A DNA stretch of 64,000 bases, taken from the NCBI GenBank assembly GCA_016178055.1, contig JACOUC010000036.1, positions 9 through 64,008 of the forward strand, in the 5' to 3' direction. The position numbers and the translations under genes were made by a program. The stretch is from Chlamydiota bacterium (GTDB lineage Bacteria; Auribacterota; JACPWU01). Below, piece by piece: positions 3,879 to 59,700 of this stretch. The first letter of the stretch is position 1, and each line of letters begins with the position of its first letter. The notes beneath the pieces were generated by a model. That model saw only the letters and a list, made by a program, of their open reading frames with translations. It had not been told where the DNA came from and did no database searches.

Positions 3879-3930
3879 GCGTTGATTTTACCATAAGAAG
3901 AGACAGACTTTTCAAAAAAAATTGAACTCT

Positions 3931-19887: not shown

Positions 19888-20069
19888 GACAACCCCTCTC
19901 GATCTTGAAAAAATCAATAATGACTGCAAGCTTACATAAGTAAAGACACTTTGGGGACTAGAAATGTAAAAATAAAAATTTAGAAATTTCCATCTCACAA
20001 TTGATAAAGGAAGGTTTCTTATAGAATAACCAGCTATTCCTTCAAGCCCTTACATAATGATTTCCTCTA

Positions 20070-24209: not shown

Positions 24210-24214
24210 AGCCT

Positions 24215-24245
24215 ATTTCGAATCTCGGATTTCGAATTTCGAATT
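24215..24245. repeat. Left heptamer-repeat arm of the four-helix-bundle cassette
   Basis: ATTTCGA ATCTCGG ATTTCGA ATTTCGA ATT. Its reverse complement shares an 18-19 nt perfect core with 24617..24649. Confidence 0.8.
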
Positions 24246-24255
24246 GAAAAACAAA

Positions 24256-26113: not shown

Positions 26114-26119
26114 CAAGAA

Positions 26120-26178
26120 GATCTATAAACGCGGATCTAACGCAGATCTATAAACGCAGATCAAATGCGGATCTATTT
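26120..26178. repeat. Left repeat arm of the GxxExxY cassette
   Basis: Tandem GATCTATAAACGCG / GATCTAACGCA / GATCTATAAACGCA / GATCAAATGCG units, complementary to the right-arm units GATCCGCGTTT. Confidence 0.75.
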
Positions 26179-29244: not shown

Positions 29245-29345
29245 ATAGCCCGATAAAGGCAAACTATTCGAAAGAATGGGGCGCAAAGTTACAGATCCGA
29301 AGATTTTGAGTTCGTGAATCGTATAACATTCCACGAGTCAGGAAC
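29245..29345 (+). promoter_or_regulatory. c-di-GMP-I (GEMM-I) riboswitch aptamer
   Basis: 29258..29288 reads GGCAAACTATTCGAAAGAATGGGGCGCAAAG. This matches the core of the V. cholerae Vc2 aptamer as I recall it (GGCAAACCAUUCGAAAGAGUGGGACGCAAAG) at 28 of 31 positions. Two of the three differences keep the GAAA-capped stem paired. A second hairpin follows. Confidence 0.7.
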
Positions 29346-29403
29346 CCAGAGTCAGGGTGGCTGAACTGCCAAAGGCTGTGAACTTAGAGTTCCTTTGTGC
29401 ACA

Positions 29404-29435
29404 CCTGTTCTTCGAATAGAAGAACAGGTTTTTTT
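29404..29435 (+). terminator. Intrinsic terminator (riboswitch expression platform)
   Basis: CCTGTTCTTC-GAATA-GAAGAACAGG followed by TTTTTTT, 22 nt upstream of the pseudopilin ATG. Confidence 0.8.
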
Positions 29436-29456
29436 ATGGGCACGAAGAGGAACTCT

Positions 29457-35550: not shown

Positions 35551-35577
35551 TGCGGGAATCTGTTACGCGGCGGCGGC
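35551..35577. repeat. Original copy of the repeat at the ORF2 stop codon
   Basis: See 34715..34740. The two copies bracket the MNT-HepT pair. Confidence 0.7.
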
Positions 35578-38500
35578 GGCGAGTTCTGAGATGGCTTTGA
35601 GGTTGTTGCGAGTGATTTCGTCAGAAAGGTTTTTGCGTTCGATATGAATAGTTTTATTTTCTCTAAATTGTTGTGCAAGATTCGGGTCAATTTTCCCAAT
35701 CATTTCTAACACCTCGGGACTGACAGAATCTACCTGAATATTGATTTCATCATTGCTTAAGAGAATGATGTTAAGATCTTTCGAAATCAAACCTTCATAG
35801 AGACTACGATGTTCCATATGAACGATAAATTGAAAGTCTTTTTTCTCCAGTGCTTCTAATCCATATCCAGGTTTGGCAAGTTCAGCCTTAATAAAGTTGA
35901 ACAGTGCCTCACCCGCTAGGTCCTTACTTTCAGGAGTAAGTAATAAGACACTTCTATTGTTTTCCTCTCCTGTTATGCTAAGCAAGCTGTCAAACTCTGG
36001 CCCCAATGCACTCTTTAAAGAATCCTTTTTAATCTGATCATGATTCATGAGCACAATTTTAAATCCCTTATTATTTTTCATCTTCTGAGCAGCTTCTTTC
36101 AAAATCTCAATATAAAAATCCGCCTCAGGTCGCTTGACTCCCTTTGCATCGACCAAATTAGCTAAATCAAAATCAACGACGCCTTTTCCTTTACCAAACG
36201 ACTCGCGGCTGTTCACAAAGAGATTTAAGAAAGCTTTTGTTGCAACACGAAGATGATTGGGTAGCACTCGTATGTTTTTCAGCTCCTCGTCCTTCCATCG
36301 ATCAATCTGTTCAGATTTGGTTTTTAAACTTAGCTTTTCAGCATCCGTCATTTCATATTGATCAATTTTGGATTTGAAAGTGCTCGAAGGCTCTAATCCA
36401 TTCAGCTCTTCTCCACTGGCAAGTTTCATCTCAAGCTGCAATCTCCAACCAGCCTCGGCTGCAACGCCCGAGCGATGGGCATTAAGGCTCGAGGCTCGAG
36501 GCTCGAGGCTCGAGGTAGAAGACTTTTTCAGGCCAAACTCCCTATCTTCATGATTAAAAATATCATCAACAACATCTTTAAAGTGAATCCGCCCATCAAA
36601 AAGGGTTACCGTCGCGGCTTCAATCAAATATTCAATGGGGATGACTGACCAGCGAACGCCATCCACATCTACCGTGACAGAAGAAGCAGTAGAGACGACT
36701 CCATCTGCATCCGTCGTTGTGAAATAATAGGGATGCCGCCCCCTATCTGGCGAGTCGTTGCGACTTGCAAAAATAATGTTGCGGTCTGTAAACCATTCTT
36801 TGATCTGAGCATCGGTCAACGCCATTCCCCTAACGCTTAAACTATTCTTTAAACGCTCCACATATCCATCAGGTCCCGATTGACGATGTTTAACCTGCTC
36901 ATAAATATCTTGGGCATTTTCTTCAGAAAAATGACCGGACCCAATGGTGCGGGAGGTGATAGAAGAGGGCATCGCTGGAGCTATCGCAAGTGGATCCATA
37001 AGGCTCTGAACCTGAACAGTCTTATCATCCGAACCCTTGCTTCGAATGTTTAAGTTTGGTTGGGTCCTGTCGTCTAAGATATCTATCCCTTCTGCCTGCT
37101 CAACCAGGACGCGTGGAACATCTCTCACAGGAACCCTTGAAATCACTCTTCCCATCTGCGAGTCACTGAGGGGATCAGAGATTCCATCCGTCATTTCAAG
37201 TAGCCAAGACCCTGATGGAACCTCTTCTGCTACAACGACTATTGGAAAATATAGATGATTGGCAATCAGGCTATTCACCACCCTGTTTCTTCTCTGCCAC
37301 AGTTGCTCAGGAGTATATCGATTGAAGTCACTTGGAATGAGATGTTCCCACTTCTCAAAATCACCCTCCTGCTCCACAGTAGAATAAAAGGGCTGCAAGG
37401 TCCATATCAAACGTATTTTTTTTGCCCTTCGGGCATCGTAAATAAGAAGTGACGAAGAGGTTGTCACTGGATAATTGTCTATCGTTAAAGGTAAAAGTTT
37501 TGTCTTAGGCCTTCGTAAATAGACCCGAGAATCGCCCGCATTAATGGTATAGACCATATAGGTTCCGTCTTTTTTTGGGATCACAAGAGACACGGCTGCT
37601 GTTGTCCCCATTCTATTGATCGGAAAAAGTTTTAAAAAAATATTCCAATCCTTTCCGTAGAAGAAAGATTCCAACTCATTAATCCGCGCCTCAGATCGAG
37701 ATACTGCATCAAAAGCCTCTAATATACCCCTTTGATTATCGCGAAAATGTTTCCTTAAAGATTCGACATCACCCTGGGTCGTTGACCCTCTCTTCATCTC
37801 CTCGACCCATTCGGGTGTAAAAATTGACGGCTCAGAAGAAAAGGATTTTCTCAAAACTCTTTTGATCTGATTGCGATCATGGGCGCTTAAGGGGATGCGC
37901 AACACACGAGAGATGATGTTATCTAAGTAGGACTCGATCATCGATTCCGGCACTTCTTCTAAGATCATATAAGGATTTGGAACTTGGCTCATCTTCTCTA
38001 TGACAGAGTGGGCCCTTTTAAAAGAGCGAGCAAGGATTGTATAAACCTGATCTTCATCCGAGGCCTCCTCTAATTCCTCGGAAAGGATAGAGGAAATCAC
38101 AATCTTGGCAAGGGTACTGGCGACCTGCCCTCCAGGACGACCTCCCACGCCATCCAAAACGCCCGATACCCTCCAGCCATTCCTTAAAACCATCGCAAAT
38201 CGATTGTCCTCATTTCGATCCGGATGCGCACTGGAAGCCTTTGTCAGATGTGAAAACACAGTGGCTTCAACCCTCCATCGGTCGACATCCTGTGCTAAAC
38301 TCTCAAGGGAAGCTTGATCATTATGAGAAATGTTTGGATCATTGCGGATTTCGAGAATCAATTTTTCAGAGGGCGCTAAACCTTGTAAATATTTCTGGTC
38401 GCTTCTCTTCCTAGCCAGCAAAAGATCATGATGGATGCGCTCACCCTTTGAGGCACGGTATTCAGCGGCGACACCCACACGATGGGCTTGTTGACGAAGG

Positions 38501-41500
38501 TCAATAGACAACTGGTCGATTCGACTGACTCCCACTTTCTTCATTAGCTCAAGCAATCTTTGATATTCACTTCCTTCATGGGTCACAATGCCACTCACCA
38601 CTCTATCAATGTCTGTATCAAGCTCGCCAGAGGGTTCAAGATAATCGACGGTGATGAGGGTGTAAAGCTGGTTATTCGCCACAAAACTGATGGATGGACT
38701 GCGGGCTCCGATGATATTGGTAAGATAGTGAGAATCTCTTTGACGATCACCTCCCGGCATTTCTCGTAAGTCGCTTAACCGAACATAAAGAACTTGCACG
38801 TTTTGGGCCAATGCCGTTTGATCTATCTCTTCGAGATCGAGGCCCCACTGGGCACACTGATCACGCGTGTTTGTTTGAGTCGTTTTAATTCGATTTACAA
38901 AATCCGTCACACTCAAACTCGTCACATCCGAAAGCTGAATATCCGGGTGATTTCCAACGACATGGGAGTTAAAGCTTCCAGAACCTCCTGAAGTTTCAGT
39001 GTCCCATCCTTCCATACCCATTAGACCCCACTCACCCTGTCCAGTAAAGCTCATATCTCCTCCTGCCGATAAGAAGCTGGCCATGCTGGATTCTTCCGCC
39101 TTCAGCTTTTCACCAAGGCTAATAATCTCGAGCAACTTTTCTCTCGCTTCCTCAAAATCCATTCTGTTTTTTGCTGGATTCAAAACTTTTTGAGTTTCTC
39201 CATCAACAACCACCGAGGAACGATTTGCCGCAAGCTCGTTATGTAATCCCTTCTTTACCCACTCGATCCACAATTTCCACATTTCTCCCTCTCCTCGACC
39301 CAGAGGCCTGTTATCTTCCAAAATATTCAGATTAGGCTGTGCAAACAATTTTCTTAAAAACACATTCACTGTTTTTCTAAATGCTGGATATTGTTGAACA
39401 AGTACTCTCAAACCTCCATGAACTCCTTTTAAAAATTGGTTTGCATTTATCCACGAAATTTCTTCTTCTTGAATATCTTGATCAGAAAAAGGATCTTTTC
39501 CATGACTCAAAACATGAAAAATCATAACAGCCATGCCATATAAATCAGAACGTCTTAAAGGATCTGGATCACTGACATCAACCGGTTCTAAATGTTGCTG
39601 AAACATCTGTGTTAATAACTTTTCCGGTGATAAATAAGAGGAACTGCCTGATACTTGTCCTCCATCTTTAGAAAGGTCATCTGTTTTAGACCTTGCAAGT
39701 CCAAAATCGATCAATTGGGTCTGAAGCGTTATCGGATCTACGATCACATTATCTTCTTTAACATCATGATGATTGACATCACCGTCTTGAACTCCTTGTA
39801 AGGAGTTCAGAAAATTCAGCGATACGCGAGCCAGTTTGATCATGTCGTCCACCGAAAAAGCCCCAGATGATGGAAAATCCTTCACCCAATCATCGAAGGT
39901 CACCCCTTCTACCCATTCCATCGCAATAAAAAAGGACTTTTTCTCTTTTTTCTCTACACCTGAAACGAAAGTTCCTTCTCCAAAATCATAAATTGCTGCA
40001 ACATCTTTACGATGAATTTTGGCTTGAAGTTCAGCCTCCCTCTTAAAGAAAGGTAATTTGTCTTGATCCAATGCCTCTTTAATCAGAACGCGTCTGCCAT
40101 TCTCATCCTCTGCAATCCAAATCCTTCCCATTCCGCCTTGGGCAAGGTAGCCAACAATGTCATAACGATTTTCGAGCCTTGACCCCATATAGGGATATTC
40201 TGATAATTGCTTGCCTTCTAATTTACGAATAGCATCTTGGGCTTCTCCAATCGATAAATCTATACTTGCAATTATATTCTTATGATCAGTGATACGACTT
40301 TTATAGATATTCTTATCTAATCCATTTAAGAAACTCTCAGAAAAAGAAGCAATTCGTTTTATATCTTTAGTAATCTCCCATTTTTCCAACCTTGTAAGCA
40401 TAGTATTCAAGGAGCCTGTGAATGCGGCAGTAAAGGCATCAAAATTTAAAATGACGGTTTTTGGAGAAGTTGTAAGTGTCTGTAAAATAAACTCACAAGA
40501 TTGCTCAAAGGAATCCAATGTTCTTGGAGTTTGAACACTGTTTAAGTTTTCAAGACCTGCAATTAGAGCAATATAGGCATTGGCTAAATGAAGCTGGCTT
40601 TCAAGAGAGGCACCTCCTCTTTGAAGGGATTCAAGATTATTTCTGACCTCTGGTAAAAGAGGAGAAACAAGAGGATTCGTCGAATGATAACTCAAAAGGG
40701 CTTCGATCTTCCACTCATCTACTTGATTGGCTAAGCCCTCAAGATCTTTTGCACCTGTTGGAAGCTTAAGTTGAGAAGCAGGTTTCAGAGATTGAAGATA
40801 TTGAATATTTCCTGTCTTGGCAGCAAGGAGGATGTCCCAATGAATTCTTTCGCCATGAGTCTGAGCAAATTCTGTTCTGACACCCGTCTGATGGGCTTCT
40901 CTTCTAAGCGATTCAGGAAGAGCAGCTATCGTGTCTACCTGAGCTTCACCCATCCTCTCTATCAGCTCTTGATATTCCGACCTCTCATGAACGACAATAC
41001 CTCGGGCAGTTTTTTGAACATCTAAGCTTTCATCAGGCTTATCTTTTAAATAATCCACACTGATCACCGTGTAAAGCTGACCATTCACCACAAAACTGAT
41101 GGAGGAGCTTCTGCTCTTACCCGTTGAATCCGTGAAATAATGAAGATCTTGAGAACTGATCCGGCCAGGAAGGCCATTTAGAGTTGTGAAGAGAATATGA
41201 TGGGTTGGGTCCCCTGCTGTGACTGTCTCTAAAGACTGAGCATCAAGACCAAACTTGCTACATGCTTTTCGCATCTCCTCTTGCATACCTTCTAGCTGCT
41301 CAACAAATTGAGTATCTGTAAGGGTAGTTAAATCAGAAAGTTGAATGTCCTTATTTTCTCCAATGGTGTGGGATTGGAAAATTGGAGTAACTCCAGAAGC
41401 AGAAACAAGTGCTTCCCAACGGTATTGGGTGGGGAATGTCTGCCCTATTTGAGTGATGATAAGGGTTTGTCCATCTTGGCTTAAATTTAAGGAAAACTGA

Positions 41501-44500
41501 GGTGTTGAAATCTTTCTAGCGTTAGTATCATCTGGCAAGAGAAGATCCGATTCAGCAGTTTTTTTAGCGCGGCTTCCAACTGTGACGACTTTACCTTGTT
41601 CTAAGATAAAGTTTTCAACACCCGGCTGCCGGCCAGGGGCAAAAATCTTATCCCCCTTTTTAGGAAGAGAAAGGACAAACTGTCCTGAACGGTAATCTAT
41701 ATGTAATATCTCTTTATCAAAGCTTTCGGGTGCGCCAAGTTTTTTAACTAACCCTTTCACTCCTAAAACTAAGGTTCGGTTTGAGAAGTTGCCGGGTCCT
41801 ACCGGAAGACTGTCTCCGCTTTTCAATTCATTTATCCATTTTTCTGCTTCTACTTTGACAGCAGATTCAACGAATGGCGTGGGTGGTTTTTCTTCACCCC
41901 TAAATGAGGTTCGAGAACCCAAATGTTCTACTTCCAAGTCATCTTCAACTCTTTGGATTCTGACATGTTTTTCTGAAAGAGCTTGAAACAGACGGAGTAA
42001 AGTCTTATCATCCCTTCCTAAAATTTGGCCAGCAGTAAGATGATCCTTATTCCATTTACAAAGACTCGTAGAAGAAATTCCTTTCCCTTCAAAAGACAAA
42101 GCAACCCCTCCATCCAGTTGGAGTGAAACTCTGACTTCAATCGACTCCTCACTGCGTGCTCCAGGCACTCTAAGAATCAAATCTTTCTTTTCCAAAACAC
42201 TCATCGGAAAACGCAATAAAGGCCCCGGTTGATCCTTTGCAGTCTTTACTTCACCTAAGGGGGTATTTTCTAGAGGCAAATCTTTCAGTTCTAAAACTTT
42301 TCTTTGAGCTGAAGGCTGGACTGCAAGAGGAGCAAATTTTGAAGGCTGAATCACCTCTTCATAACCGGTCATGTCATCATCTTTTGCACGACCTCGTAAA
42401 GGATGTGTAGAACCTTTATTGGCAGATGTATCTCTAACTTCACGACTCTTTTGAATCAGAAGAAGAGGGGCCTCTCCAGGGGCTGTTTCATCCATGATTT
42501 TATCAATTGAATCGTGGATCGAACCGCCTGGAGTCTCGTCGGGTAAATTATCTCTCAGTCCATCGCACACCCCTATTAAGCGAGTGCCAGCCTTCACTCC
42601 CTCAGCTTTTACGATAACAGGAATACATTTCATACCCGGTGTTAGAGAAGTTCCGAGGGCGTTCCTGTTTTCAAAAACTTCTTTAGGGTTTCCTTGAAGA
42701 TTGCTAGGAAGCAAGTTCTCACAACGATCACAATCACGAAGACTTAGAACGGAGGCCAAGAAAAGTTGAGGGGTGTTTTTTCTAGCCTTATCAGCCTCAT
42801 CCAAAGAGATAGACCTGTTTCTTTGTTCTTCTGAAGGAATATAATTATCAATGGTCATCACACGTAATTTTTTACCGGGTTCCTTCAAATAAAAACCGGT
42901 ATCCCCTACATTAATCACGTAAATATTGGAAGTCCCATCAGATTGGGGAACAATGATCGAAGTTCCTCCCGCTGTTCCCATATTTGAAAGGGGGAAAAAC
43001 GCCTTCCAAAATGCTTCTATAGATTGATTCTCATTGATTGCCCGATCCATTTTCCTATTCATTTCCTTTACAAAATTTCCTATCAATTTTTTAGCATCAT
43101 CTTGTTTCAAATTAAGAAAAGTATTTGAAAACTGTTTTCCTACCTCTATAGTAAAGAATCTCTTCCAATCATTTAAAACAGAATCTTTTAAAGTAAGAAA
43201 ATTATATTGTTTATCTACATCCTGACCATATACAGATTTCAGATAACCCAGAACGGCGTTAGATAAAAGATTTTCAATTGAATAAGCAGCAAAATGACTC
43301 TTCATCACCCCACGAATTTCCGAGACATCAAATGAAAACTTCAAACGCCCCGGAAGCAAATTCAAAACTTTTTCTAAAAATGAATCCAAAAACTCATCCT
43401 CAAAAAGAGGACGGGGAAGACTTGCAACTAATTCAATCGCAAGTTGAGCTTTTTGATAAGCCTCACCCAAAATCGAAGGGATTTGCTCTTCTGAAGCATT
43501 TGAAATTTTTTGTTTAAGATATTCGCTCACGACAACTCTGGCAATGGTGCTGGCCACTTCTCCTCCTGCCGCCCCTCCCATTCCATCAAAGACGCCTCCT
43601 ACAATCATCTCATCCTTCAAAACAATTCTAAAATAACTGTCTTCATTTCGCCCCATGTGTGCATTTGCAGCGAGAGTCGCCATGCTATAGACTCCAGGTT
43701 CTCTCTTGACTTCAATCCCTATCTCCTCCTCTTCAAGTGAAAGTTGGCCCGGCTTATCCTCATAAGAAATCGTTAGACCTTCTCTATAGCCAATGAAAAG
43801 CTTCCCATCGCTAACACGAAGCGAAACACGACCGATCGGTGTGCCTCCGTTAACCGAAGGAAGGCGAATATTTCTAGTATTGGTATGAGGTCCTAAACTG
43901 CCCAAAAGAATTTTTTCTTCTAAAATATCAGTGGCTCTTGATCCCAAACTTACTTCCTCATCATTAGATCCGATCCGAGAAAAATTAAAATTCCCATCTT
44001 CGAGACTAACTTTCACAACAACCGAATTTCCTAAATCTGGCGAAGAACCCGTCCATGTCAGAAGAATATCCTGAGACTCTAGATCTGTCAGATTGATCTC
44101 TTCAAGTCCGGTAGAAGCTATAACATCAAAGTCATCAATGGCTTGATCTATGGTTTGAGTTCGTTGCTGTGGGTCTTTCTCAAGAAGTTTTCTCAACCAA
44201 TCGACCCATGGAGAAGGTAAATTCAGCAAGCGGGGATGATGAGGATTTTTCTCGAAAAAATCTACCGCAACAGTATTCGTTAAAACTTGCCGTTTTTGAC
44301 CTTCGTCAAGAAATGCCTCTGCCCCAAAAGGATTTTTGCCAGTCAAGGCCTCTAAAAAAAGAGTTCCCAGTGAAAATAAATCTGAAGAGAATCGAACGCG
44401 ATAGCCAGGGGCACTTTCAGAAATTTGATCTATATCTACAATCTCAGGGGCCATATAACCAAGCGTTCCAACTATGCGATGAATCTCTTCATTGACCGAA

Positions 44501-47500
44501 ACTGAGATTCCAAAATCTAAAAGGGTTATCCTTCCCGTCTCCTCATCATAAATGATATTTTCCGGCTTAAGATCAAGATGAACAATATTTGCCTGATGCA
44601 CCTTTTGAACAGCCAAGAGAATCCTCCTAAAACATAGCAGCATTCTCTGAATATCGGCCTCTTCCAGAGTCTCCTTAGCCCTAAACCTCTGAATGAAATC
44701 TTTCAGTTGTTTTCCAGATCCATACTCCATCGCAAAATAGTGACGTGTCCCCCCTGTCGTCGGATCTCGATAGGAACTCTTTTCTAACACCCTTGGGACA
44801 ATATTTTCACCTTCCGAAATTTTAACTACAGCCTCTTGCATCTCCATTTCACGATTTCTTGCCTGACCCTGACTCATAGCGGGTTCTTGATCTAATGGGA
44901 CTTTGACAACACACCGTGTTCCTGCGGAATAAGAGCCTTTTGGTTCATCTGATTCAAGAGGTTTAACTAATTCAACCTCGAAGACCTTGGCGATACTTGA
45001 ACTCACCAATAATCCAAGAATTTTGTACTTTTCTCCAAGCGGTGGCAAATTTTGTTCAGGAAAAGAAGCCATCCAATTTTCCGGGGCTGAATCTTTTAAA
45101 AATGGGAATAATTTTTGTTTCATCTGACGAGTTCGTTCAGGCCCCACAATAGAAACAACTCGATCGTAATCAAAATGATTTCTTCGCTCATAGGCTCTTT
45201 GAGCAACATTCTCAAAACCCTTCATGATATCGTTAAATGTCTTTTCGAAAATAGGTCTTAATGTTGAATCTAATGTGGCATTAGGACTTAACCGTCCTTG
45301 GGTTATATTAAATGCCCGTTGAAATTTAGCAATGGCAAAACCCGTTTGATTAAGCTCAAATTCCCTTAACCCTTCAAGAAAACTAACACTCGCTCGGGTA
45401 TAATCAAGCATGCACTCGTGTAATAAATCTAAGCTTTTATCTCGATCAGAGGATTTCTGTTTAATCGTAATCCCTGGAGTTTTTTCCCAAAATTTCTTTA
45501 GGCTTTCCGATAACTGCATCGCACTAGATTTATCACCCCTTTCAAGAGCTTCGCGAACGACCTGATCGTGCCTCTGAACAAGCCCTATCAATCGCGTGTA
45601 TGTACTCTGAAATTGAGTCGGATCTTTAAGAAGGTTATTCCACAAAAGTTCACAGGCTTTCGCATCATCTTGCGTTTGAAGAGCGGCTTCAACCGAATCT
45701 TGTCCCCTTGCTGAGGGGGAATTACGCGGCGGCGCAAGGGCCGCCATCGAAGCCAGAGGAAGGATCTTAAGAAAATCACTGACCCCTCGTGGCACCCATG
45801 AAGGGAGTCTTCCCTCTCGAGCCCGTAAAATAAGACGGTTATATATCGAGTGAATCAACGCAAGACCGATAGAAGCACTGACTAAAGGTGCCACAGGTGC
45901 ACTAAAAATAAATATAGCTACATCATAAATTCCAAGATAAAAAATGGAAAAGTAGACATAGACGACAAAATAGTTTAAAAATTCTCTTTTAAACGCATCC
46001 CCAAAATTTCGATAGCGCTGATCGCTGGGCAAGCGATAGCGATCGATCATCCACAGCACAATCACATGTCCAGCCGAAAAAAGAAACCCGCTCACGAAAA
46101 ATGCAGTCAAAGCCAAAGGCGCCTGCAAAGAGAAATAATCCACACTTCCATGCACTAAAGACCAAAAGAGACCCGTTTCAAGAATGGGTGCTACCCACGT
46201 GATCAGGATCCTTCCCCAGAAGGTCTTTGATGGCTTGATCAGAAATCGCTCACGAAGACTAAGAGCTGCCTCGCTCACTTCTTGACCGTTACGAATATAA
46301 GTTCTGCCAGACTCATGCGCGGACATCCAGGCTGTATCTTCAATAAAAACTGGAATCTCTTTAAACTCCCTTTTATAGAACTCTTTCAATAGTTCTAGAG
46401 CAATCTCACGAATTTTTTTAGAATCACGGCCTGCTGCCTCCCAAATTTGACCTGAAACTGCAAGTAGTTTTTCCTTTTGTTTCTCTCTATCCAGGTTTCT
46501 CATTGCTTCAGGCTCTGGTATGATGATCTGTGTTCCTGTCGGCGAAGAAAGTTTTTTTGCAAACTCCTTGAACAAGTGATGAATGGCCTGGGCATGTCCC
46601 TTTTCAATTTGGGGTATGGCCATAGTACCAGTGTCTAAACCGCCTTGCTGACGAACTTGCTCTTTTACCTCTTCAACCTTTTTCCAATATTCAAAAAGCT
46701 CTGTTTCAAAAAATCTCATAACGTTGATTTCATCCGGGATGGCCGCTAAAGAACCCAGGTAAGCCGTGTATTCATCGTTAGGGCGTGAAAGCCCCTTGTT
46801 CAACAAGTCTGCCAACTCATTCAATTTATGAATCGCTTCATGATAAACGGTGGATAATGTCAAGCGCTCGTCTCTCCCCTCTTTAAGAAGAACATAAACC
46901 TCATCCTGCTTGCTCGGAGCAAAACATCTGTAATTATCCTTATTCGTATAATCTGGTCTGACAAAGGCAACCCGAAATTCTGAATAGGGCTCAAGATGAA
47001 TCGGGATATAAGAGTCTAGGCGGCCCAAAAGAACGATGTCGGACGGGTGGGCATAAAAGACAAGATGATAGGGCTTGAAGAATTGTCTTAAGAATTCAGC
47101 GGCTTGTGTATAATTCCAGCTCTTTTGAAGAACGGCTCCCACAGATTCCACAAGTTTGGGATTTTTCCTTTTCATGTCACTGATCCAGGTCTGATATTCA
47201 CCACCATCCGCCTGAAGCTTGCCTTGAAAGAATTTCAATAACATTGAATAAATCCCTTCTGCTTGAGGCTGGGTATAGGTTGGTCTGAAAGATTCACCCT
47301 TTAGAAGAACCTCCCCATAAACCTTCAGGCTTGTCTCAAACCAATCAAATACAAATATTTCACCATCCTTTCCGTCAAAGAACAATTTCCTCAACTGGCT
47401 GTGAGCACTTCGATCTTGGCTAAAAAAAGCGCTTTTATCTTGAGAAGAAACCTCAACATTCGAAACGTACTCATTCACCTGACGTGTGAGAAAGGTTGAA

Positions 47501-50500
47501 TTGTCAACGATGCTCCAACTATTTTCTTTAATCAAAGAGCCCCAGGCCAGCACATGAGCCATTCGAATAATATTGGGGCGGCCTTTCTCCATAAAGGATG
47601 GAGGAATTTTTGCTTGTAACTCCAAATCTTGCGGCAATGTCCAACGCAGCTTGTGATACCAAGCGGCTTTCAGCTTTTCAAACTGAAGCGCCTCGGCACG
47701 TTCGGACTCATTAAGACTCTGATCCATAAAGATGTAATAAACAGGATTTTGTCCATCACTACTTTCAACAGGCAAGAGATAGGCCCCTGTAAAAGATTTT
47801 AGATGCTGGCCGATGACATCACTTTCATTCTGACTGTCATAATTAAAAATACGACAAGTGATGGCTTCATTATTAATGGTTTCCGTTGTCACCTCTCCCT
47901 GTGTGGAAATAGGCAATTCAACTGTTTTCTCTAGGTTAATGGTTTTCCCAAGACGGAGCGCTACCCTTTGCCCCTGAATCTGTTGCGCTTTGATTAGAAT
48001 CACTCCATCACCCTCTTTCCCCAAACTATCTCCCTCGCTCCAAATATTCTTACGAGCGCCGCCACCGGTGATATTGGGCGGATTAATCGAGGGAACTCGC
48101 AGAAGAGCGGGGGCTAAACTTCCACTGCTTAAGAGGCTTAGGCTCAAAATGACACCGCTCATTCTTCGGGCAAGAATTCCATGCTGCCTCAACCAATTCC
48201 AAACGGGATAGAGCCAATTCATCCTTCCTTTAAGTTCTCTTCTCGCCTCATCTCTAAACCTTTCTTCATAGGTATGAATAGAATCTATCGAAAGAATCGG
48301 ATAGCGATATTTTTGCAAAAGAGGATTGATGAGCCCAGACAATTGATTTTGATAATTAATTCTTGCTTGAATATTTTCGGCCTTAAATGCACTTTCAACA
48401 AATCCTGCCAATTCAGTCCCATTCATCTCTAATATTTTCAAACGGCTTAATTGAGTCAATCCTTCAGGTGTTTGACCCGCTTCAAGGTAGGATTGAACTT
48501 GATGGGCAATGATTGTGGCTAGAATAAGAGCTTTATCAGTATTGGGATGATCCCGCTCATCAGCATCAAAACGCTCCTCTACACCCGGAAGAGCAAGTAG
48601 CTGTGTTTTTAATTGAGAGTCCCTTTCACCCAAAGCAGCTAAAATAATCTGAATGATTTGCCATTCTCCACTTTCATGTCTCAAAACTTCGTCAAATGCT
48701 TGACTTGGCTTCCCCTGACTGCAAAGATCTTGCCTTACCTGAATAGCAAGGGCTGTAGCAGTGCCCTCATGCCCTCCATGATGGCCTCTTGGAAAATTTT
48801 TCAGAGAAAGAGAAGGTTCTACTGCTTGATCCGTTACAGGATTTAAAATGGGCTGACCTGACCATACAAGAGAAGGCGAAACTTTATCAGTCACAGATCC
48901 AGATGCAGCCAAGGAAAGTGGAAGAGCTGAGTCATCACCCGGATAGCCCACAAATGGTTCCCGTCTCATAGATCCGACTAGAGGTATTTCACCTAAAGAT
49001 GGAGCAACAACCGCAGGCACACTCGCAAGTCTAGGCAAGAGCCCAAGCCGAGATTGAGTCGGAGGTTGAAGCTCACGCATGGCCGTGGGTAAAAGGCCTT
49101 GATAAATATTTAGAATGATTTCTCTAGAAAGATCTACCATTGCTTGAGCAATTTGTTCAGCTGAAATTTGTTGTTCTCGTCCTGGAGGGCCACGAACACC
49201 TGCAAGTTTATTTAACAAAACAGGAGGAGCTCTTCCCGAAGAGGGTTCTACCCATTTTTGAAGTTCTAGAGCAACAGCCTCACGTGATTTAAGAATACCC
49301 TTTACATATAACGCCTTCTTTGCGAGTGCATGAAGTGTTTCCATTCCTGGGCCTGAGAGACCTGCCTTCAATCCTGCATCACGAATTCGAGCCATATATT
49401 TGGCAGTCTTCATTAAAGTTTGGATCGGATCCCCCTGATACGACTCTCTCTGGTGCTCAAATTTACCTAAGAGCTCAGTCATGGAATGAAGGTAACGCAA
49501 GGGCGTCATATCGATGAATTCAATTCTCTCACCCTCTTTCTGCATTTGATTGACCACATGGAAAATAGCCCCTGTAGAATAGTGAGGATCTTTCTCGAAA
49601 AGACGGACTTCCATGGAGAGGCTTAACAACTGAACTCTCTGGGACATACTCAGCGGTATAATATTTTCTTGAGTGACGACATTATTTTCTTCCTTGAAAC
49701 GAGCTAATCTCTCAAGCTTCCTTCGTAAAATTCGACGTCTGGCTTCTTCTTCCCGCAATCCCTCTGGAATTGTTGGATCCAAATTTGAGATTTCAGCGGC
49801 AAGCTGCCCTTGTACTTTTCCATAGTAGGCCTCGGCTTGTGCCAAAAAATCTTGCAAGGAAGGAATTTCCTTTAAAGACTTCCACATTTCATGGGAAGGA
49901 CCCCCCCCATCGATCAAAAAAGCAGTATAGGCGACCTGAGTCTCCAATAGCAATGCCTGTTGACGACGAAGAGAATCTTCTTGGCGAGAGATATCGATGA
50001 TCAAGGGGTCTCCATAAGAATTTGCATCGAAAACCTGATAAGAAGAATCTTGAAAGCCCGCCTCTTTCCAAACATCATCAAAGGCCATCAAAATCCGCTC
50101 GGACCCTTCATTGAGAATGCTGAGGTCATAATCACTCCCCATTCCAACTGAACCTGTAGAGTTTAAACGGACTTCTCGGAAATTTTTGATTTTTGAATGA
50201 ACTTTAATCCAAGAATAATTCTGATGAGCCCTTTCTTCCGCCTTCATTAAAAGGGTATCCACAACCGCCTTTCTCTGTCGTTCAAAAGCCTTTTGAAGTT
50301 CTTCAGAAAGATTAAATTCTTTCACCCATGCACGAATCTGATCCCAATCTTGCACCTCTTTAAAAAAGGCAAGAAAACGCTCATCCACCCCCTCATCGGT
50401 GACTTGGGAAAGTCCATTTCCAACAGAAGATAAAAGCTTTTGAAGAGGAAGAGGAAGCGGCTGATGAATCCTCTGGATAATATTTCCTTTATAAAAATCA

Positions 50501-53500
50501 AAGTCATAGGTCAAAAGATTTCCCTTTCGATCGGTAGAAGTAAAAAAAGTTTCTTTCAAAACGCCCAGGGCATCGCGAAAATAAGTTTCTGCCTCTACTC
50601 CAAACTTCTGAAGTAATTCTGAGCTCCGCGAAAGATTTTTTAAGAGATATTCCAACTCCTTTGAATTCATCATGTACCATGAACCCGCAATGGCGACCAC
50701 CTCATGGGGATTTTGTTTCCAATGAGACCGGTCTCCCTCTTTATCTTCTCTAAGTTGGCTGAAAGAAATACCTGCCTGACGAAGTTGAATCGCTCGAGCC
50801 TCAAGAAAACCAAATAGATCATCCCCTTTTGTCTCTTTAAATTGAGCGATTTCCTCATCTATTTGGAAAACATCGCCTGTTAGCTGGATCATATCTTTTT
50901 TGTTCAACAAATTCATATATTCATAAAGATCCGAACTCACATAAACCACCTCTTCTCCTCGTTCCTGACGAACCCAACCGTCTGGTTGCAATGATCTAAA
51001 GCCCTCAATACTGAGGGAAGCAAGCTGATCCATTGTAAACCTGCTCCCTGCATCATCAATATAAGCGGTAAACCCCGAAGCCTTACTCATACGAATCCAA
51101 CGATCAACAGAGAAGAGAGGCGTTTTTTCACGATTTGAGCCCGTCGAGAGTTTGTGACACAGCTCATGAAAAAATGTGACCGCCATCGGCTCACTTGTTC
51201 TTTGTTGCTCTAACAGTTGAAAATTAAGTGAAAGGGAAAGAACCGTTTGAGCAAGCCGAGCTACCCCCAGTGAAGACATTCCTCTTTCCGCACCTGAAAA
51301 AGCAATAAAGGTACGATAGGCATCCGTCATGGGGCGGGGAAGAAAACTGACGGCCTCTTCCATTTCTTTTATGAAAGACTCTGGAATGGGTGCCTCAATC
51401 GCAATGTTACGTGCTCGAGCCTCAAGGTGGAGCAAAACTAGATGATATAAAATAGATGATTTCCACTCTGCTTCTCTTCCCAGGACAAAATTTCTTTGGA
51501 GATATGAAAGCAAATTTTGTCCTTCCCGATCTATGCCTCTTTCCTCTTTTTTATATTTTTGAAAGAGAAAATCATTAAAAAGATGGCTAACCATATGATT
51601 GAGAATTGCATCCCCAACATCCGGAATGTAGGATAGTGCGATCATCAAAGCCCCTATCTCATCTTGGGTCAGCTCAAGTCCGCCAAGAGGATTTTGGAAA
51701 GTGCGGTCAAACACGGAAAGATGAACCGTCCTGGTTTCAAGACAATTTGATACAAATAGGACCAGTTGATCCTTAAGCTCAGGTCGTATAGGTAAAGGCC
51801 TCAGCTTTTGTTTGAAGCTCTCTAATTCAGGCCTTTCTACAACCGTTTGTCCCCCCAAAACTTCCAGTTTCACCGTTTCAGCTATATCAAGTCTGCGAGG
51901 CTCAACCGAAGGAACCAATATCGCTGAATCCCCTTCCACAGAACGGGCCGGCATAGATGTAAAAATACCGCTGGGTTTAAAAGCAATGGAAACTGGAACA
52001 ACCTCGCGTACAGTAGAATCATGTTTTCCATTAATACCCTCAACAATTGTGGCTGTACTCGTAAGAGCTTGCTTCAAAGCACTTATTTTATCCTTTATGT
52101 TTAAATATGAACCATTTAAAAAATTAATCACTTCCTTCAAAGCAGGGGTCACCACAGCAACATTTGCTTGGTAAAAACGAAGAGCGGCCTCTAAATCAGA
52201 ATAGCTATAATGTACCGCCAAATAAGCAGCAACTTTCTTTACAGAATCAAGGTCCCCTTCTTCGAGAAGAGGAAGCTGTTTATTTAACCCAACTTCTTTG
52301 CCGTCTCTAACATAGACACGAGACAATTCATGAGCCCTCATCCAGCTTGTATCCTCTACAAAATCTGGGACATACCCAAGTCCTTTTTCATCCCTGTAAA
52401 ACTCTTTCATGAGTTCCAAAGCAATATCATGAATCTTGTTGGAATCCTGGCCTAAATCTAGCCAAATTTTTTGCGAGATAGCCTTTAATTTTTCCTTTTG
52501 TTCACTCCTAGACAACCCCTGCAAATCAATAAACTTAGGAATAACAATTGGAATTGCGGTCCTTGCAGAAACTTTTTTGGCAAATTCTTTGAATAAATGA
52601 TGAATGGCCTTGGAATGCCCCCCTTTATCGTCGCTTTCAACAGCCAAAGTGTTTGAAGTTGATTCACCTCGTCCACGCGCTTGGGCTTTAGCTAATTCGG
52701 CCTCTTCCCAATAGCCAAAAAGCTCTGTCTCAAAAAAACGCTTCACATTGACTTCATCAGGAATGGCAATCAAGGAGGCAACGTAAGCCGTATATTCATC
52801 ATCAGCAAAACTCAATTTAAAATGTGGATTTATCTTTTTTAATAAAGCATTAAAATTATGCAAAGCTTCATGATAACCTGTGGAAAGTCTTAAGCGCTCA
52901 AGTTCTTCACTAGAAAGTTCCCGCCGACTCTCGCTATCCTGCAATAGAACATAAACTTCATCATTTATTCCCGGAATTTTAAAACCTCGGGCATTTCCTC
53001 GATTATCGTAATCTGGATGAACAAAAAGGATACGAAATGGGGGATGAAGACCTAAACTGATCGGAATGTATGAATCTAGGCGACCGAGCAAGATCGAACC
53101 ATAAGCTCTTCTACTCTGGAAAACAAAATGGTAGGGTTTAAAAAATTCCCTTAAAAATTCTGCGGCGGCAGCATAGCCCTGTCCTTTTTTGAGGATAATT
53201 TCAATATTTTTAAAAAGCTCTGTATCTCTATTTTTGGGGGAAAAGCTTACTTCTATTGAAGGATTTCCACTTTGAAGAGATACTCGAAAGCGGTTGTAAA
53301 TTTCTTCAACCTCTGCCTGTGTGTAGGACAACGGTTTTTCTACAGAGGATAGTGAATAAGGGCTCTTATTCTTTCCAAGATGCCTTACAATCAAATGACC
53401 CTGACTATCCTTCTTTAATGAAAGATGAAAACGAGATATCAGACTTTCAGAATCCTTAATAACTAAATTGAGACTCTTCGGAGAGCTTCCAGCAAATGGC

Positions 53501-56500
53501 GAACTTCCAACCCGTAATTCTTGATCACCAACCTGAATGACGCTCTCACCAGAAACCACAATGAATTGACCCTTTGCTGAATCATATGTAATAGTAATAG
53601 GCGCCTCTGAATAACCTGCGAGTTTGACCTGTAAAATTTTTCCAGATAAGAGATCAGGTGAAATGCGGTAGAATTCTCCTTTCTTCCAAACTCCTTCTTC
53701 CAGCGATATAGATTGTGAAAATCTGATTAAGGCTTCTTCCTTCCATTGATCTATTTTTTGGGCCAGCTCACCAAGGACATCCGCATATTTAACAGGCAAA
53801 CCTTGCTGGACATATTCTTTAATCTTTGATTTATATTCACGAGCACTTTTGAGATTGTCTAAATAAGCCCAATCGCCTCGTTGAGTTGCACTGAAAATTT
53901 CATAACGAATTCTTTCTCCTTGAGAAGCTCTATATTCTGCAACCACCCCAACTCGATGCGCATGAAGTTGAACTTTAGAATCCTTAGATTGTTTGGCCAA
54001 ATTTTCTTTTGTCTCATGGAGAGCGACACCTCTGATCATTTTCATGATATCAAAATCAAGGGCTCTCGCTTCTTTCAAAGACTCTAGGCTCATCACCGTA
54101 TAAAGTTTTCCATCCACTTCAAAACTGAGGGTCGAACTCTTGCCGCGCGAGCCTTCAAAGAAAACAGAAGTCGAATCTGTCCCCGAACGCAAAGCCCCCG
54201 GTAAATCTTTTAGAGAGGTAATAAAAATATTATTCTCTTTAAGCCAATCAGATTCATCTTTTTTCAAACCTAGTCCAGGGGAACTTCCATTCACCAAACC
54301 AATCTGTAAACGTTGAAGAACCATTACAAAATCTATCGAACTCAATGAAGTTAAATCCCCTAATGCCAATTCCTGATGCTCGCCCACCGGCTGAGCGGTG
54401 GAAAGAGGAATTATTTCCGCTACCGGAGGGCCACTGGCTTCGAGAGCAGCTATATTAACTTCTACCTCAGACAGCTGTAACCCCATAACCTGACTGGTTT
54501 TTCCATCGATTAAAAAAGTAGCGAGATTAATTATTAAATTTTTTCCGGGCAAACCTTCAAGAGGAATCGCACATAAAAGCTCGCTTCCTTGTAAAATGAA
54601 TTTTAAATTTTGAAGATCTAGAGAGAAATCTCGAAGAATAGCCCCTGGCGACGACCGATCTTGTTCGAGCGCAGTCGAGAACCCGCTCTTTCCCATAGCC
54701 TGAAGCCTTGCCCCAACAAAATCACCAAAAGATTGTGGACTGACAGCCGCATCAGTTGCTTTAAATTCAGCATAAAGACTTTTTAAAATGGTCGAAATCA
54801 ACTGAAGTTCATAGGCAATAATCGGAGCTCGGTCTTCGGGAAGGCCTTCAGCATTGGTCATGAGCCAATGCATGAGACTCTTCTGGCTCGAGGCTCGAGG
54901 CTGGAGGCTAGAGGAGGAAATAGGAAGAGATTCATTTTCTGCTTCTTCGGTTTGTTTTTTTTCTTTTGTTTCTGCCTCGAGCTTCGAGCCTCGAGCTTCG
55001 AGCCTAAGATTTTCCCCCACCCATTTCTCAAAAGGGGTCAGCTCCCCCATCATTACAGATTCATAGCGGTCCGCAGAAGATGCATTAAAATGAGGGATGA
55101 AGACAACATACGAGTAGCCCGCCTGTTTCAAGGCTTCCTTTAGAGCTGGAGTATGGAACCCCCCGGTCATCACGGCCCCGAAAGACTCATCAGACTCTTT
55201 CAAGCGATTTAACGCCCGAAGCGTCATTTCATGATCCCGTTCAAGCGTTGCTTCATAATAAGGTTCGATCTGGCTAAGCCGATCGGCCAAGGGATAATGG
55301 ATATCTTCAGCATGCTCTTCTACAGTGTAAGCCCCCGATTCATGCTGAATGAATTTTAAAATTTTTGGAATGAGCTTATCTTTTTTAGAAACGTATTCCT
55401 GATATTCAGATTTCTCAATGGAGAGATCTGTAAGGCGATCCAGAAGATTAATAAAGGATGAATAGAGGCATAAAGATTTTTCTTCCTCGGTCACACATTC
55501 AGCAAATAAGGTTTCAAAGGCAAGTTTTTGGATTTGTTCAAAGAGGAGGGCATCACTGACTTTTTGCACCGCTTCGAGATAGTTCATGTAGTTTTGGATA
55601 TTTGGATAAGAATTTGAAATGCTCGAGGCTCGAGGCTCGAGGATCGAAGCAGGCATAGAAAGCTCCATAAACCTCTTCACTGTCTGATAAAATTCTAAGG
55701 GGGCAATCTCATTCAAACGATACGATAAAGTCTGCTCTAAAAATTTGGCCATTTCCTCATCACTGGCCTTTCCGTTGACGGCGATGAGAAGCTTTCCCAT
55801 TTCATTGTGAATTTTCTTTAGATCAATATTTTTCTTGAAGGGAAGCGTTGCAAGATAAGGCTTAATCTCTGAAAAATTTTCAAGATTGATTTTTGCCTTT
55901 TCGCTCTCCCTCATGAGACTTCCCATAAAATGCTCTAAATCTATTTTGTAGGTAAGATAGTCATTCAATTCCCTTACAAAACTCTGAACTTCACCTGTAT
56001 AGACATAATCCGAAAACTGAGCCATTAAAATTTTTAATTTAGCAATATGCTCTTTCAATTCTTTGCGAAGAGAGACCGTATCCCGGTAGGCATGATAATT
56101 TTTTAAGTAGAGATGGATATCCTCAATCCCATAAAGTTGAAGAGGCTTTTCTCCATTGATCGCTTCAAACTCAGCACCCGTGAGCTGACCCAAATTGAGA
56201 TATTCCTCGGACACCTCTTTTAATATTTTTTTATCGGGGAAAGATCGAAAGCGTTGGGTCGAGAGCTCACCCGAGGCGGCTTCGATGTTGATCCTTTTAA
56301 GATTATATTTTTGAGCGAGATATTCTAAGAGGTCCACCGTATTTTTCTGAGCTTGAGGATGGGCATGAATATCCTGAAAGAGGAAAACGGTATGGCTTGA
56401 GTTCGGCGCTTGATACGTCTCGATCACCCGTCCCAGCTCTGTCGGAATAAAAATAGAGGAAGAATTTTCAAGAGAAGAAATGGACGCCGCTTCTTTAGCC

Positions 56501-56701: not shown

Positions 56702-59700
56702 CTACGCCTTTACCGCAGCCAAGTCATACATCTGACGCGTTGCTTTATATTTTTCCTCGTCTAATTCTTCTTTCTTAAGATGCACGCTATAGGTCTTCAC
56801 TCCTTGTCCCACCTCTTTTGCCTTAAACCGTTTTGCAAGCTCTGCATTCATTGCGCTCAATTTATCAAACATCGTTTGATCAAGCTGGATATCAATCGCA
56901 TCGCCCAGTATGAGTTGATTCAAAATTTTCGAGTAAATAGATTGATGGCTGGGGTCGATCACAACCTGAATATTTTGAACTTGTAATCCCATTAAACCCT
57001 TCGCCTCAGCCGCTTTTATAATATAATTTTCCATATTTTCAGGGCTTGCCTCTTCTCGAGTGGGTGCCTGCTCAAAAATAATTCCTTCATTTCTAAATCT
57101 CAACAAAACTTCGGCTCCAGGAATTTTCTTATCAACCAATGCCTGAAGGCCACCGATCTTACCTTCATGGTCAACCAATACTATTTTCATTTGGCCTTGA
57201 CTCTGACGCATCTGGGCCGCTGCTTTTACTAAAACTGCAATTGAAGCCTCAGCCCCAGGACGAGCGATATTATTACCATCCACAAGAGTCGAAAGATCGA
57301 TCAGCAAAAGCGCCGGAGCTCTATCCAGTGCCTCTGGTCTGTCCATAAAAAGTCCACGAACAACTCCCTCAAGCGCTTCAGCCTTAGACGCTTCAAAACG
57401 ATTCGCAGATGTTTTCCGGATTGACTTCTGAAGCAATGCAAATTGTTTAACCGAGGTCTCAAATTTTTCAATTTGGAATATGACATTATCCGGAGACTTT
57501 CCTAAGGCTGTTAATATCAAGGGTAAATATTGCTTAATAAATTCTCTCTGCTCAGCACGATCATCTCCAATCACAGCTTGAAGGGCATCTAGATCCATTT
57601 CTCGAATTTCATTCCAGAGAAATTCTACTTGAGTAATATCAGTCCAACCATTTTCAATGATTTGAAGGGCCCAGGCCAATATATGACTGACACGAGCAAG
57701 ATCTGGTAACTCCCCCAACCCCTCTTGAACCAAGAGGGGAGTCCCTCCTACTGAAGTCTCTCCCCTTTCTTTTAAGGGGGAGCTGGAGAGGTTACTCTCC
57801 ATCCAATTTTTAATAAATATTTCCATCTTTTCATGCTGAAGAGCAATTTTTTTATCTTGGGCATTCCTAGAAATAAATATATAGAGCTTGCCATCATTCC
57901 CATAGCAGTGATAGGCCCCGCCGACCGTCTTTAAAATATCTTTTAAACCTGGAAACAATTTTTCCAGATGAGGATCATTTTCATCATAGTTCACTTCCTG
58001 ATACGTTGTAACCCCTCTAACTCCCCTTAAACTAAGGGGAGAGCCCGTCTCCCTTCCCGATTCAAGAGTAGCCATCTCCCCTCTTGGTTCAAGAGGGGTT
58101 GGGCGAGTTACGTTCTTTAACTTACTTAAATAAGGGTCGCCATCATCAATTGTCACCGTCCGACTCTTACTAATTTTTTTTAGATTTACTGCAAATTCAA
58201 TCATCTTTAATTCCTTATCACGACTCAAACTCACTTGATGATGCACCAATTTCTTACGAGCTCCGCCGCTTCCTGGCGTACCAGAGCCCGGAGGTGTTTT
58301 GGAGCCTGAAATTCGGGCGAGCCATCGGACGAAGGGAGATTGCGCAAACGCTTCAACCTTAAGCCAAGAAATTCCTGCCAATGTTGTATAAATTAGACTT
58401 TTTCGAAAGGTTAATTCCTCTAATGCCCTTTCCCTGAACCTTGATTCATAAGCGTTTAACTCGTCCATATTAATCTGCATAGTTCGCATAGGTTCTGGCA
58501 TGCGCCTATTTAAAGTTTCTATGACCCGATGCTGAAGAGATGCCCGCATTTCAGACGTTTCTGCTTCAACTCTTTCGAGAAATGCAGTGTCTTTCTCCCT
58601 CATTTTTCTTTCATGAAGTAGTGTCAACCCTTGTTTTCCATATTTGATGACCTCTAAAGCCGCCGCCCCTATGTGAGCTGCAAGGACAGCGATGCTATAT
58701 TCACGAGTTTCTCCACTATATCTTGCTCTACGCTGGACAAGTCTCTCTTCTAAAATAGGCTCTAGTTCATCTATCAAATCTGGATTGCTTATAATCCACT
58801 GCATCAAGTGCCATTCTGAAATTTCATGAACACCCACTTCGTCACGTTCTTCCATTTTAAGGTTTCGACTCATCCAAATTTCAACACGATTCCTTTCAGC
58901 AACTTTAATCACCGCATCATTTCCTTGAAGTTTATCAGCAGGCACCAAATAACAGCTTAGTTCGGCATCTTCACCCAAAAAGTTTTTAATCTGTTTATAA
59001 GGAAAAGATGGAATTAAAAATGACTCGTACTTATTTGACTCTGCCGGCTCATGAAGTGAGGGAAGACCCATCTCACCCTGAGAAGAACGGCTTTGATCGG
59101 CCCTTTGACCCGTAGAAGTAGTTGTAGAAACTGCATGAGCAAGCGTACCAAAAGCACCCGCCACCTCTGGAGCCAAAACATCATCAACGATTTCGATGTC
59201 AGGTGAAATTTCCTCTGGTAAAACAATGTCTAATTGATCTAGGGCCTCTGAAGTCGACATTCTCTGTGTAACGTCCTTCGCGAGAAGTCCTCTGAAAAAA
59301 GTTTGAAGATCGGAATTCAATTTTGAAAAAGCTGCTTCATATTGTCCATCAAAGGGATCGACATTTGTCACCTTTTCACGCCCTTTTACTGCACGACCTT
59401 GCCCCGTGGGCACTTCTCTATCCATGACTCGAAAGGGACTTGTGTTTAAAAGGGACATATATAAAATAACCCCCAGTGCAAAAAGATCACTTTTAAAACT
59501 GAAATTGCCATCATAAGTTTCTGGAGACATATAGGTAAGAGAGCCAATAATGAATCCGGATCGAACCTTTATTTCAGGAGAACCCGCAGCCCCAAAATCG
59601 ATCAGGGTCATTTTGTTTGTTTTAGGATTATAAAAGAAGTTTGCAGGCTTAAGGTCTCGATGGACTAAATTTAGGCCATGAACTTCTTCCAAGGTTTTCA

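Follow-up and report, generated by a model that had tools for sequence, protein, structure and literature searches.

We examined the giant open reading frame ORF2 in 64,000 nucleotides of DNA from a Chlamydiota bacterium (GTDB lineage Bacteria; Auribacterota; JACPWU01), taken from GenBank assembly GCA_016178055.1 (contig JACOUC010000036.1, positions 9 to 64,008 of the forward strand); this whole stretch is called the window below. The 7012-residue protein contains two paralogous modules, each with an HExxH motif, and shortly after the second of them lies a block of four hydrophobic helices with a one-sided distribution of charge. The His, Glu, His, Glu and Tyr residues of the modules are conserved throughout their family, the predicted fold is zincin-like, and the block has a homolog in another giant protein. 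We consider it reasonably probable that the modules are active proteases of the gluzincin type and that the block, derived from a CPBP protein, serves as a one-sided membrane tether, probably on the cytoplasmic side. Giant bacterial proteins are mostly unannotatable; here about 700 residues resolve into a domain family with a testable signature of HExxH plus Glu-Tyr, and a further 130 residues look like a minimal four-helix CAAX-protease core. The superfamilies themselves are already known, as are giant multidomain proteins with embedded peptidases. New are a zincin-like family that neither Pfam nor NCBIfam contains, its duplication in one chain and a minimal four-helix CPBP core in mid-chain; no new principle is demonstrated. 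Giant polyproteins have long been suspected of processing themselves, and the modules, if they are active proteases, are candidates for this role; whether the chain is tethered or threaded matters for where its kinases and phosphatases act.

The initial annotation of this DNA had described two clearly paralogous modules of about 190 residues. Their paralogy was borne out by BLASTP, which aligned them with E values of 5e-67 and 1.5e-68 at 47-51% identity (51% in a MAFFT alignment), but the size was too small, as the similarity spans about 340 residues in each copy (Table 1). ORF2 has exactly three HExxH sites, HEALH at residue 1244, HELCH at residue 1812 and HEAIH at residue 3254, all at the positions first assigned to them, and in the translation both outer sites are indeed followed by DEYTAY and AIHHLFKEFAKK. 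In module 1 the Glu of DEYTAY comes 21 residues after the second His, and in module 2 it comes 19 after.

The conservation of these residues was examined in homologs gathered by an exhaustive HMMER scan of 1.84e9 representative proteins, with a profile that covered both modules and the transmembrane (TM) block. Besides ORF2 itself, the scan retrieved just five proteins (P0002 to P0006). The module core was matched by four of them, with E values from 1.6e-7 to 1.5e-4: an 874-residue protein (P0002, E 1.6e-7), a fragment on a 2-kb contig (P0003) and two giants of 6037 and 4397 residues (P0004 and P0005). P0006, with 7388 residues, matches the TM block and not the module core (E 6.2e-4 library-wide with the full profile). 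The module family is therefore extremely rare, amounting to five protein clusters in the 1.84e9 with ORF2's own cluster included. An alignment of modules 1 and 2 with P0002-P0005, at 25-55% identity to module 1, has only 12 invariant columns, and five of these are H112, E113, H116, E137 and Y138. The HExxH residues are thus identical in all six members, as is a Glu within the interval of about 18-25 residues past HExxH, in the next helix, where gluzincins have their third ligand; conservation of the His and Glu residues, which had been proposed as a check on the modules, is complete. The first His of GGHSKAIHHLFKEFAKK is aligned in four of the six. Word-index protein searches with residues 3100-3625, with the six-member alignment and with the CPBP block of P0006 returned no relatives, which likely reflects a limit of the index because the exhaustive scan did find relatives. 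Profile searches of genome contigs and metagenome contigs with the module and TM alignments found no related loci, the module and TM profiles matched nothing above noise among PDB sequences, and a local hidden Markov model of the module detected no extra copies in ORF1, ORF3 or the giants neighboring P0004-P0006. That module and TM block form a fixed unit was considered and rejected: no TM block follows module 1, no hydrophobic block accompanies the module of P0004, and the hydrophobic stretch of P0005 lies inside its module.

AlphaFold was run on the core of module 1 with the six-member alignment (predicted local distance difference test, pLDDT, 67; predicted template-modeling score, pTM, 0.66). 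In the resulting model a helix and four strands precede a long helix with HExxH (residues 99-125), which is followed by a helix at 137-147 and then a helical bundle. The invariant E137 stands at the start of the 137-147 helix, and the order of elements in the model resembles the zincin layout. A run on module 2 with the TM block and two sequences (pLDDT 44) was discarded. Structure comparison of the module 1 model placed M49 dipeptidyl-peptidase III closest, followed by M30 (lugdulysin, 6.2), M1 (LTA4 hydrolase, 5.3), M4 (pseudolysin, 5.3; thermolysin, 5.1) and M3 (oligoendopeptidase F, 5.2). The zinc ligands of thermolysin are spaced from His146 to Glu166 and M1 peptidases have HExxH-x18-E; the His-to-Glu spacing of the modules is alike. 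However, the modules have no detectable sequence similarity to these families of clan MA(E), and whereas gluzincins are free-standing enzymes, the module is embedded twice in one very long chain. Assignment to Peptidase M49 was rejected. M49 has its own motifs, HExxGH and EExR(K)AE(D), whereas the modules have HExxH rather than HExxGH and a second motif (D/E)EY(T/A/S)A rather than EExRAE, and Pfam, with its Peptidase_M49 model, gave no match for any of the six at E<=10. On the sequence and the model, we provisionally file the modules as a previously unclassified family of the gluzincin kind that belongs to no named family.

The hydrophobic block is the second element of this reading. CPBP/Rce1 proteins carry EExxxR, FxxxH and HxxxN/D on core TM helices. 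A multi-TM region with CPBP-like motifs had been noted after the second module, with TM helices expected within 45820..46235, and four hydrophobic segments do lie there at residues 3461-3483, 3493-3519, 3542-3562 and 3565-3590 (Kyte-Doolittle and Wimley-White; by hydropathy only). ETGLFW, FSAGH and HSIYN sit on helices 1, 2 and 4 in CPBP order and spacing, so that motifs 2 (FxxxH) and 3 (HxxxN/D) stand as described, but motif 1 is degenerate. The sole homolog found for the block is residues 731-836 of P0006 (40.6 bits in a pairwise phmmer comparison), where the motifs have the canonical form EELLFR, FSAAH and HAVWN in a four-helix layout with a basic middle loop, DAFK+EF, as in ORF2. Motifs 2 and 3 were matched to P0006 by the phmmer alignment and motif 1 by eye against EELLFR; MAFFT misaligned motifs 1 and 3 between the two proteins. 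Rce1-like was the better of two weak Pfam matches of the ORF2 block (E 0.37, 11.5 bits vs. a cut-off of 22.4). For the P0006 block it scored 14.6 bits (E 0.042) against the same cut-off, level with HEAT_2 and narrowly surpassed by DUF624 in a set of four weak matches. The NCBIfam CPBP family MroQ was the second of two weak, sub-threshold matches of the ORF2 block (E 0.71), and a tblastn search of plasmids with the P0006 block produced nothing beyond noise. Compared with the CPBP/Rce1/Abi proteins (PF02517, type II CAAX prenyl endopeptidase-like intramembrane glutamic proteases), the ORF2 block has the same order of helices, Glu, FxxxH, spacer and HxxxN, with a Rce1-like 37 residues from Glu to His. 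However, it has four helices only, without the flanking core helices, and a longer middle loop (72 residues from His to His), and it is an internal part of a giant polypeptide, whereas members of the family are membrane proteins of 200-300 residues. CPBP proteins carry their motifs in four core TM segments, and six core helices are common to Rce1 and APH-1 (PMC6588880). Weak as they are, the matches to CPBP families agree in direction, and judged by its sequence the ORF2 block is very probably CPBP-derived; the degenerate motif 1 makes it doubtful that the block can act as a protease. ORF3, another giant of the window, has a possible split CPBP-like set at residues ~3653-4012 (~7960-9040), in which PFIEEIFIW (EExxxW) and FVWGH (FxxxH) are 26 residues apart and AHIVSN (HxxxN) follows about 330 residues further on; its phmmer comparison with the ORF2 block was not significant.

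It is a real, if lesser, possibility that the block is only an anchor or scaffold, a catalytically dead CPBP-derived or CPBP-resembling pair of hairpins (four helices in all) that perhaps also contacts other membrane proteins, in the manner of non-catalytic Abi proteins such as SpdC and Abx1. The E-T-x-x-x-W form of motif 1, the low Rce1-like score and the lack of the extra helices of full-length Rce1 all agree with such a role, as does the finding that in Abi proteins the second Glu is usually essential and that some of these proteins work without proteolysis (bioRxiv 10.1101/516906). On the other hand, the first Glu of motif 1 persists in the block, as do the two His and the Asn, at Rce1-like spacing, this Glu is the critical one in MroQ (bioRxiv 10.1101/516906), and P0006 retains a fully canonical set of motifs.

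With either role, the arrangement of the block in the membrane bears on the rest of the chain. Lys and Arg residues number 4 in the 20 residues before the block, 0 in loop 1, 6 in the middle loop, 0 in loop 3 and 5 in the 25 residues after it, so that the flanks and the middle loop together hold all 15 and the short loops are free of them. Given this distribution and the even number of helices, both halves of ORF2 should therefore be on the same side, and the proposed membrane crossing near residue 3500 is not supported. The block is most likely a re-entrant anchor, or double hairpin, without net crossing, whose flanks and middle loop would be cytoplasmic by the positive-inside rule. In that orientation His3512, His3584 and Asn3588 would lie near the cytoplasmic ends of their helices; the active-site cavity of Rce1 opens to the cytoplasm. 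ORF2 also has a marginal hydrophobic segment at residues 2816-2834, with no counterpart in the homologous stretch of ORF1. An extra TM helix there would alter the overall topology of ORF2.

We propose that each module consists of a small beta-sheet subdomain followed by an active-site helix with HExxH, and that the next helix opens with a Glu 19-21 residues on. The two His and this Glu would be the expected zinc ligands, and the HExxH Glu would act as the general base. The block, as a stripped-down four-helix core of the CPBP/Rce1 (CAAX-protease/Abi) type, would dip into the membrane and return, tethering the giant chain with both long flanks on one side, most likely the cytoplasmic one. The modules would probably cleave proteins, either the giant chain itself or partners of its kinase, PP2C and FHA-like signaling domains.

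An unlikely alternative is that ORF2 is an exported multi-effector polyprotein that follows a MARTX-like logic and whose signal peptide drives export. Its kinase, phosphatase and protease modules would act in or on another cell, the zincin and/or CPBP parts would process the chain, and the block would insert into a target membrane or, from the outer face, into the membrane of the cell itself. Effectors typically carry Ser/Thr kinase domains of the eukaryotic type, PP2C domains and metalloprotease domains. Six related giants (ORF1-ORF3 and P0004-P0006) share a signal-peptide-like start and a head domain of about 470 residues, and, apart from the N-terminus, P0004 and P0005 exceed the Kyte-Doolittle threshold in one stretch apiece, at residues 4587-4607 and, inside the module, 938-956, respectively. 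Published giants of Omnitrophota are mostly predicted to be extracellular, and their embedded peptidases have been proposed to cleave them, although TM-based localization is unreliable for such proteins (bioRxiv 10.1101/2023.11.21.568195). A 2026 complete-genome preprint reads most such giants as anchored in the inner membrane with a cytoplasmic bulk. Against export, the positive-inside pattern argues for cytoplasmic flanks, ATP-dependent kinases are cytoplasmic activities, as are the ClpB-like AAA+ and glycosyltransferase domains of ORF3, and the window yielded neither cleavage sites nor genes of a secretion system.

Somewhat more doubtful still is an elaboration in which the giants are exported, self-processing polyproteins, with the zincin modules, next to FHA-like domains that would bind phosphopeptides, cutting the chain or its targets in a phosphorylation-dependent manner and the CPBP core inserting or releasing it. 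A weak FHA-like stretch lies directly upstream of module 1 in ORF2, the fragment P0003 has an FHA-like end directly before its module (read by eye from the sequence), and P0004 has weak FHA and kinase matches. In a variant reading, the signal peptide and the segment at residues 2816-2834 would together place module 1 outside the cell and module 2 inside.

Several observations weigh against our preferred reading, with its active gluzincin-type modules and a membrane tether whose flanks are probably cytoplasmic. Pfam, NCBIfam and PDB sequence searches with the modules gave no link to any peptidase family, even at E<=10, in agreement with the initial annotation, which could not place the HExxH context in a known family. 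Foldseek against the PDB with the same module 1 model found nothing significant. Neither the ORF2 nor the P0006 block scores above a curated CPBP threshold, and in motif 1 of ORF2 the second Glu and the Arg of EExxxR are replaced, with only the first Glu kept. As the block has a single homolog, the conservation of its residues rests on two sequences. Finally, a signal-peptide-like N-terminal segment, with comparable ones in ORF1, ORF3 and P0004-P0006, conflicts with a wholly cytoplasmic chain unless there is an extra TM segment such as that at residues 2816-2834. We also regard it as improbable, though conceivable, that the modules have a zincin fold without being peptidases and are instead some other metal-dependent enzyme or a non-catalytic peptide-binding domain.

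The third HExxH site, HELCH, stands apart from the modules. Its local context, VTFFHELCHKL, is zincin-like: the hydrophobic residues ahead of H-E-L-C-H, together with that motif, recall the SprT-like core of SprT/Wss1-like minimal zincins. However, SprT-like, the sole Pfam match of the region, scored 17.1 bits (E 0.0049) against a cut-off of 25.6. A phmmer search with residues 1600-2080 (480 residues) found no homologs among the related giants in which conservation could be judged, and the FHECAH and FHEFAH sites of P0005 resemble HELCH at the level of the motif only. HELCH is thus unproven as a zincin site. Because 0.23 HExxH sites are expected by chance in 7012 residues, the two paralogous sites are not chance occurrences and the single HELCH could be one. 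That the HExxH and CPBP-like motifs as a whole are accidents of a very long protein is highly improbable and, for the modules, refuted, since their sites are conserved across the paralogs and four distant homologs, and six-frame translation of ~650 kb gave the full EExxxR...FxxxH...HxxxN pattern just once within hydrophobic sequence (P0006) and once spuriously.

Table 1. Features of ORF2 and its neighbors, with positions in the window
Feature	Residues	Position	Strand	Remark
ORF1, giant ORF	2350 in total	56702..63754	minus	
ORF2, giant multidomain protein	7012 in total	35563..56601	minus	uninterrupted 7012-codon ORF, stop-free translation
ORF3, giant ORF	5355 in total	3931..19998	minus	
Signal-peptide-like segment, ORF2	1-32	56506..56601	minus	basic n-region and 12-residue hydrophobic core
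Head domain, ORF2	53-526	55024-56445	minus	also at N-termini of ORF1 and ORF3
Fourfold repeat, ORF2	718-967, 5064-5311, 5871-6120, 6578-6774	~53701-54450, 40669-41412, 38242-38991, 36280-36870	minus	~250 residues
Weak FHA-like stretch	1038-1078	53368..53490	minus	immediately before module 1; sub-threshold Pfam FHA match (15.6 bits, E 0.023)
Module 1, gluzincin-like domain	1092-1437	52291..53328	minus	
HEALH, module 1, putative zinc-binding/catalytic motif	1244-1248	52858..52872	minus	H-E-x-x-H invariant in 6/6 members
DDEYTAY, module 1	1267-1273	52783..52803	minus	Glu is putative third metal ligand; E and Y invariant in 6/6
GGHSKAIHHLFKEFAKK, conserved helix of module 1	1327-1343	52573..52623	minus	
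HELCH, minimal-zincin-like site, unproven	1812-1816	51154..51168	minus	
Marginal hydrophobic segment, possible extra TM	2816-2834	48100..48156	minus	Kyte-Doolittle 1.71, Wimley-White -4.6 kcal/mol
Module 2, paralog of module 1	3108-3442	46276..47280	minus	BLASTP, MAFFT
HEAIH, module 2	3254-3258	46828..46842	minus	
NDEYTAY, module 2	3275-3281	46759..46779	minus	
KGHAQAIHHLFKEFAKK, module 2	3334-3350	46552..46602	minus	
Four-helix hydrophobic block, CPBP/Rce1-like core	3461-3590	45832..46221	minus	hydropathy; ~20 residues past module 2
APILETGLFW, degenerate CPBP motif 1	3471-3480	46162..46191	minus	EExxxR changed to E-T-x-x-x-W
FSAGH, CPBP motif 2 (FxxxH)	3508-3512	46066..46080	minus	aligned with P0006 FSAAH
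HSIYN, CPBP motif 3 (HxxxN)	3584-3588	45838..45852	minus	aligned with P0006 HAVWN
Heptamer, ORF3		8848-8919, 17947-18049, 18557-18577, 18799-18909, 19449-19558		
Heptamer, ORF2		36487-36514, 54886-55003, 55621-55641		
Heptamer, ORF1		63041-63068, 63371-63398		

ORF1 and ORF2 are adjacent, and all three giant ORFs lie close together in the window. In ORF2 Pfam recognized only two Ser/Thr kinase and two PP2C regions, all in the C-terminal half; the N-terminal 3500 residues had no Pfam match. Self-comparison by BLASTP revealed several internal duplications. One is a fourfold repeat in which H-E-x-x-E and A-H-x-x-G-V-x-x-E are invariant and a D-x-W-+-x-E tail is conserved; it has no Pfam match, was not found in the other giants and could, from its sequence, be another metal-binding or catalytic domain.

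The N-terminus and head domain common to ORF1-ORF3 and P0004-P0006, the latter from unrelated genomes, appear to define a family of giant proteins with variable cargo. The head domain has no Pfam match; its motifs FLFQDIHAH and GGFHTPALKEALKQAGY presumably recall the TraB/GumN/ChaN/Tiki superfamily. ORF3 carries an apparently intact M50 site-2-protease core (residues ~1134-1265, ~16150-16600), with LHEYAHG in a TM helix followed by NLLPLPSLDG, set among multiple TM segments in a chain that also has a ClpB-like double AAA+ region, GT4 glycosyltransferases and a methyltransferase. The gene neighboring P0004, also a giant, encodes Peptidase_M48, and membrane-protease families thus seem to recur in these giants. 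The Omnitrophota giants (West-Roberts et al. 2023 preprint; 2026 preprint) are likewise encoded by clustered giant ORFs. Most of their sequence defies annotation, enzyme domains are scattered along it, and they have TM segments and/or signal peptides as well as embedded peptidases proposed to process the chain. However, ORF2 falls far under their 30,000-residue class, lacks the SecA-DEAD, dockerin and C39 hallmarks, and differs in its cargo of Ser/Thr kinase, PP2C, FHA-like and zincin-like domains.

The giant ORFs also share a tandem heptamer, (CTCGAGC)2-4, with an XhoI palindrome at its core. Its 35 pattern matches (0.01 expected) are confined to the three giant ORFs, occur in both orientations and often form inverted pairs 30-90 bp apart; none falls inside the module or block coordinates. 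Three heptamers make 21 bp and keep the frame, being translated as LEPRASS, SSLEPRA or LEARGS. The unit at 54870-55020 is predicted to form a strong mRNA hairpin (-56.5 kcal/mol, z -4.4), and residues 534-573 of ORF2 and 362-401 of ORF3 are 72% identical across one heptamer unit. The heptamer looks like an in-frame, hairpin-forming element akin to a miniature inverted-repeat transposable element, or a recombination hot spot.

Elsewhere in the window, a stand-alone gene for an FHA-GAF-SpoIIE/PP2C phosphatase (20287-21978, minus strand), separated from the 5' end of ORF3 by about 290 bp, fits the phospho-signaling theme of the giant ORFs. Directly ahead of a gene at 29397-30494 with an N-terminal DUF1559 match is a c-di-GMP-I riboswitch (29248-29373, plus strand; 56.9 bits against a gathering score of 35). 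For a UbiD-like gene the best match, in Acidobacteriota metagenome-assembled genomes, reached only 62% identity. Finally, a 5.9-kb contig from SRR12113417 corresponds to positions 22248-27992. Its GDE protein is identical, but it has an extra 23S_rRNA_IVP gene between GDE and TldD, and its PD-(D/E)XK gene encodes 158 rather than 181 residues, differences that indicate strain-level variation at this locus.

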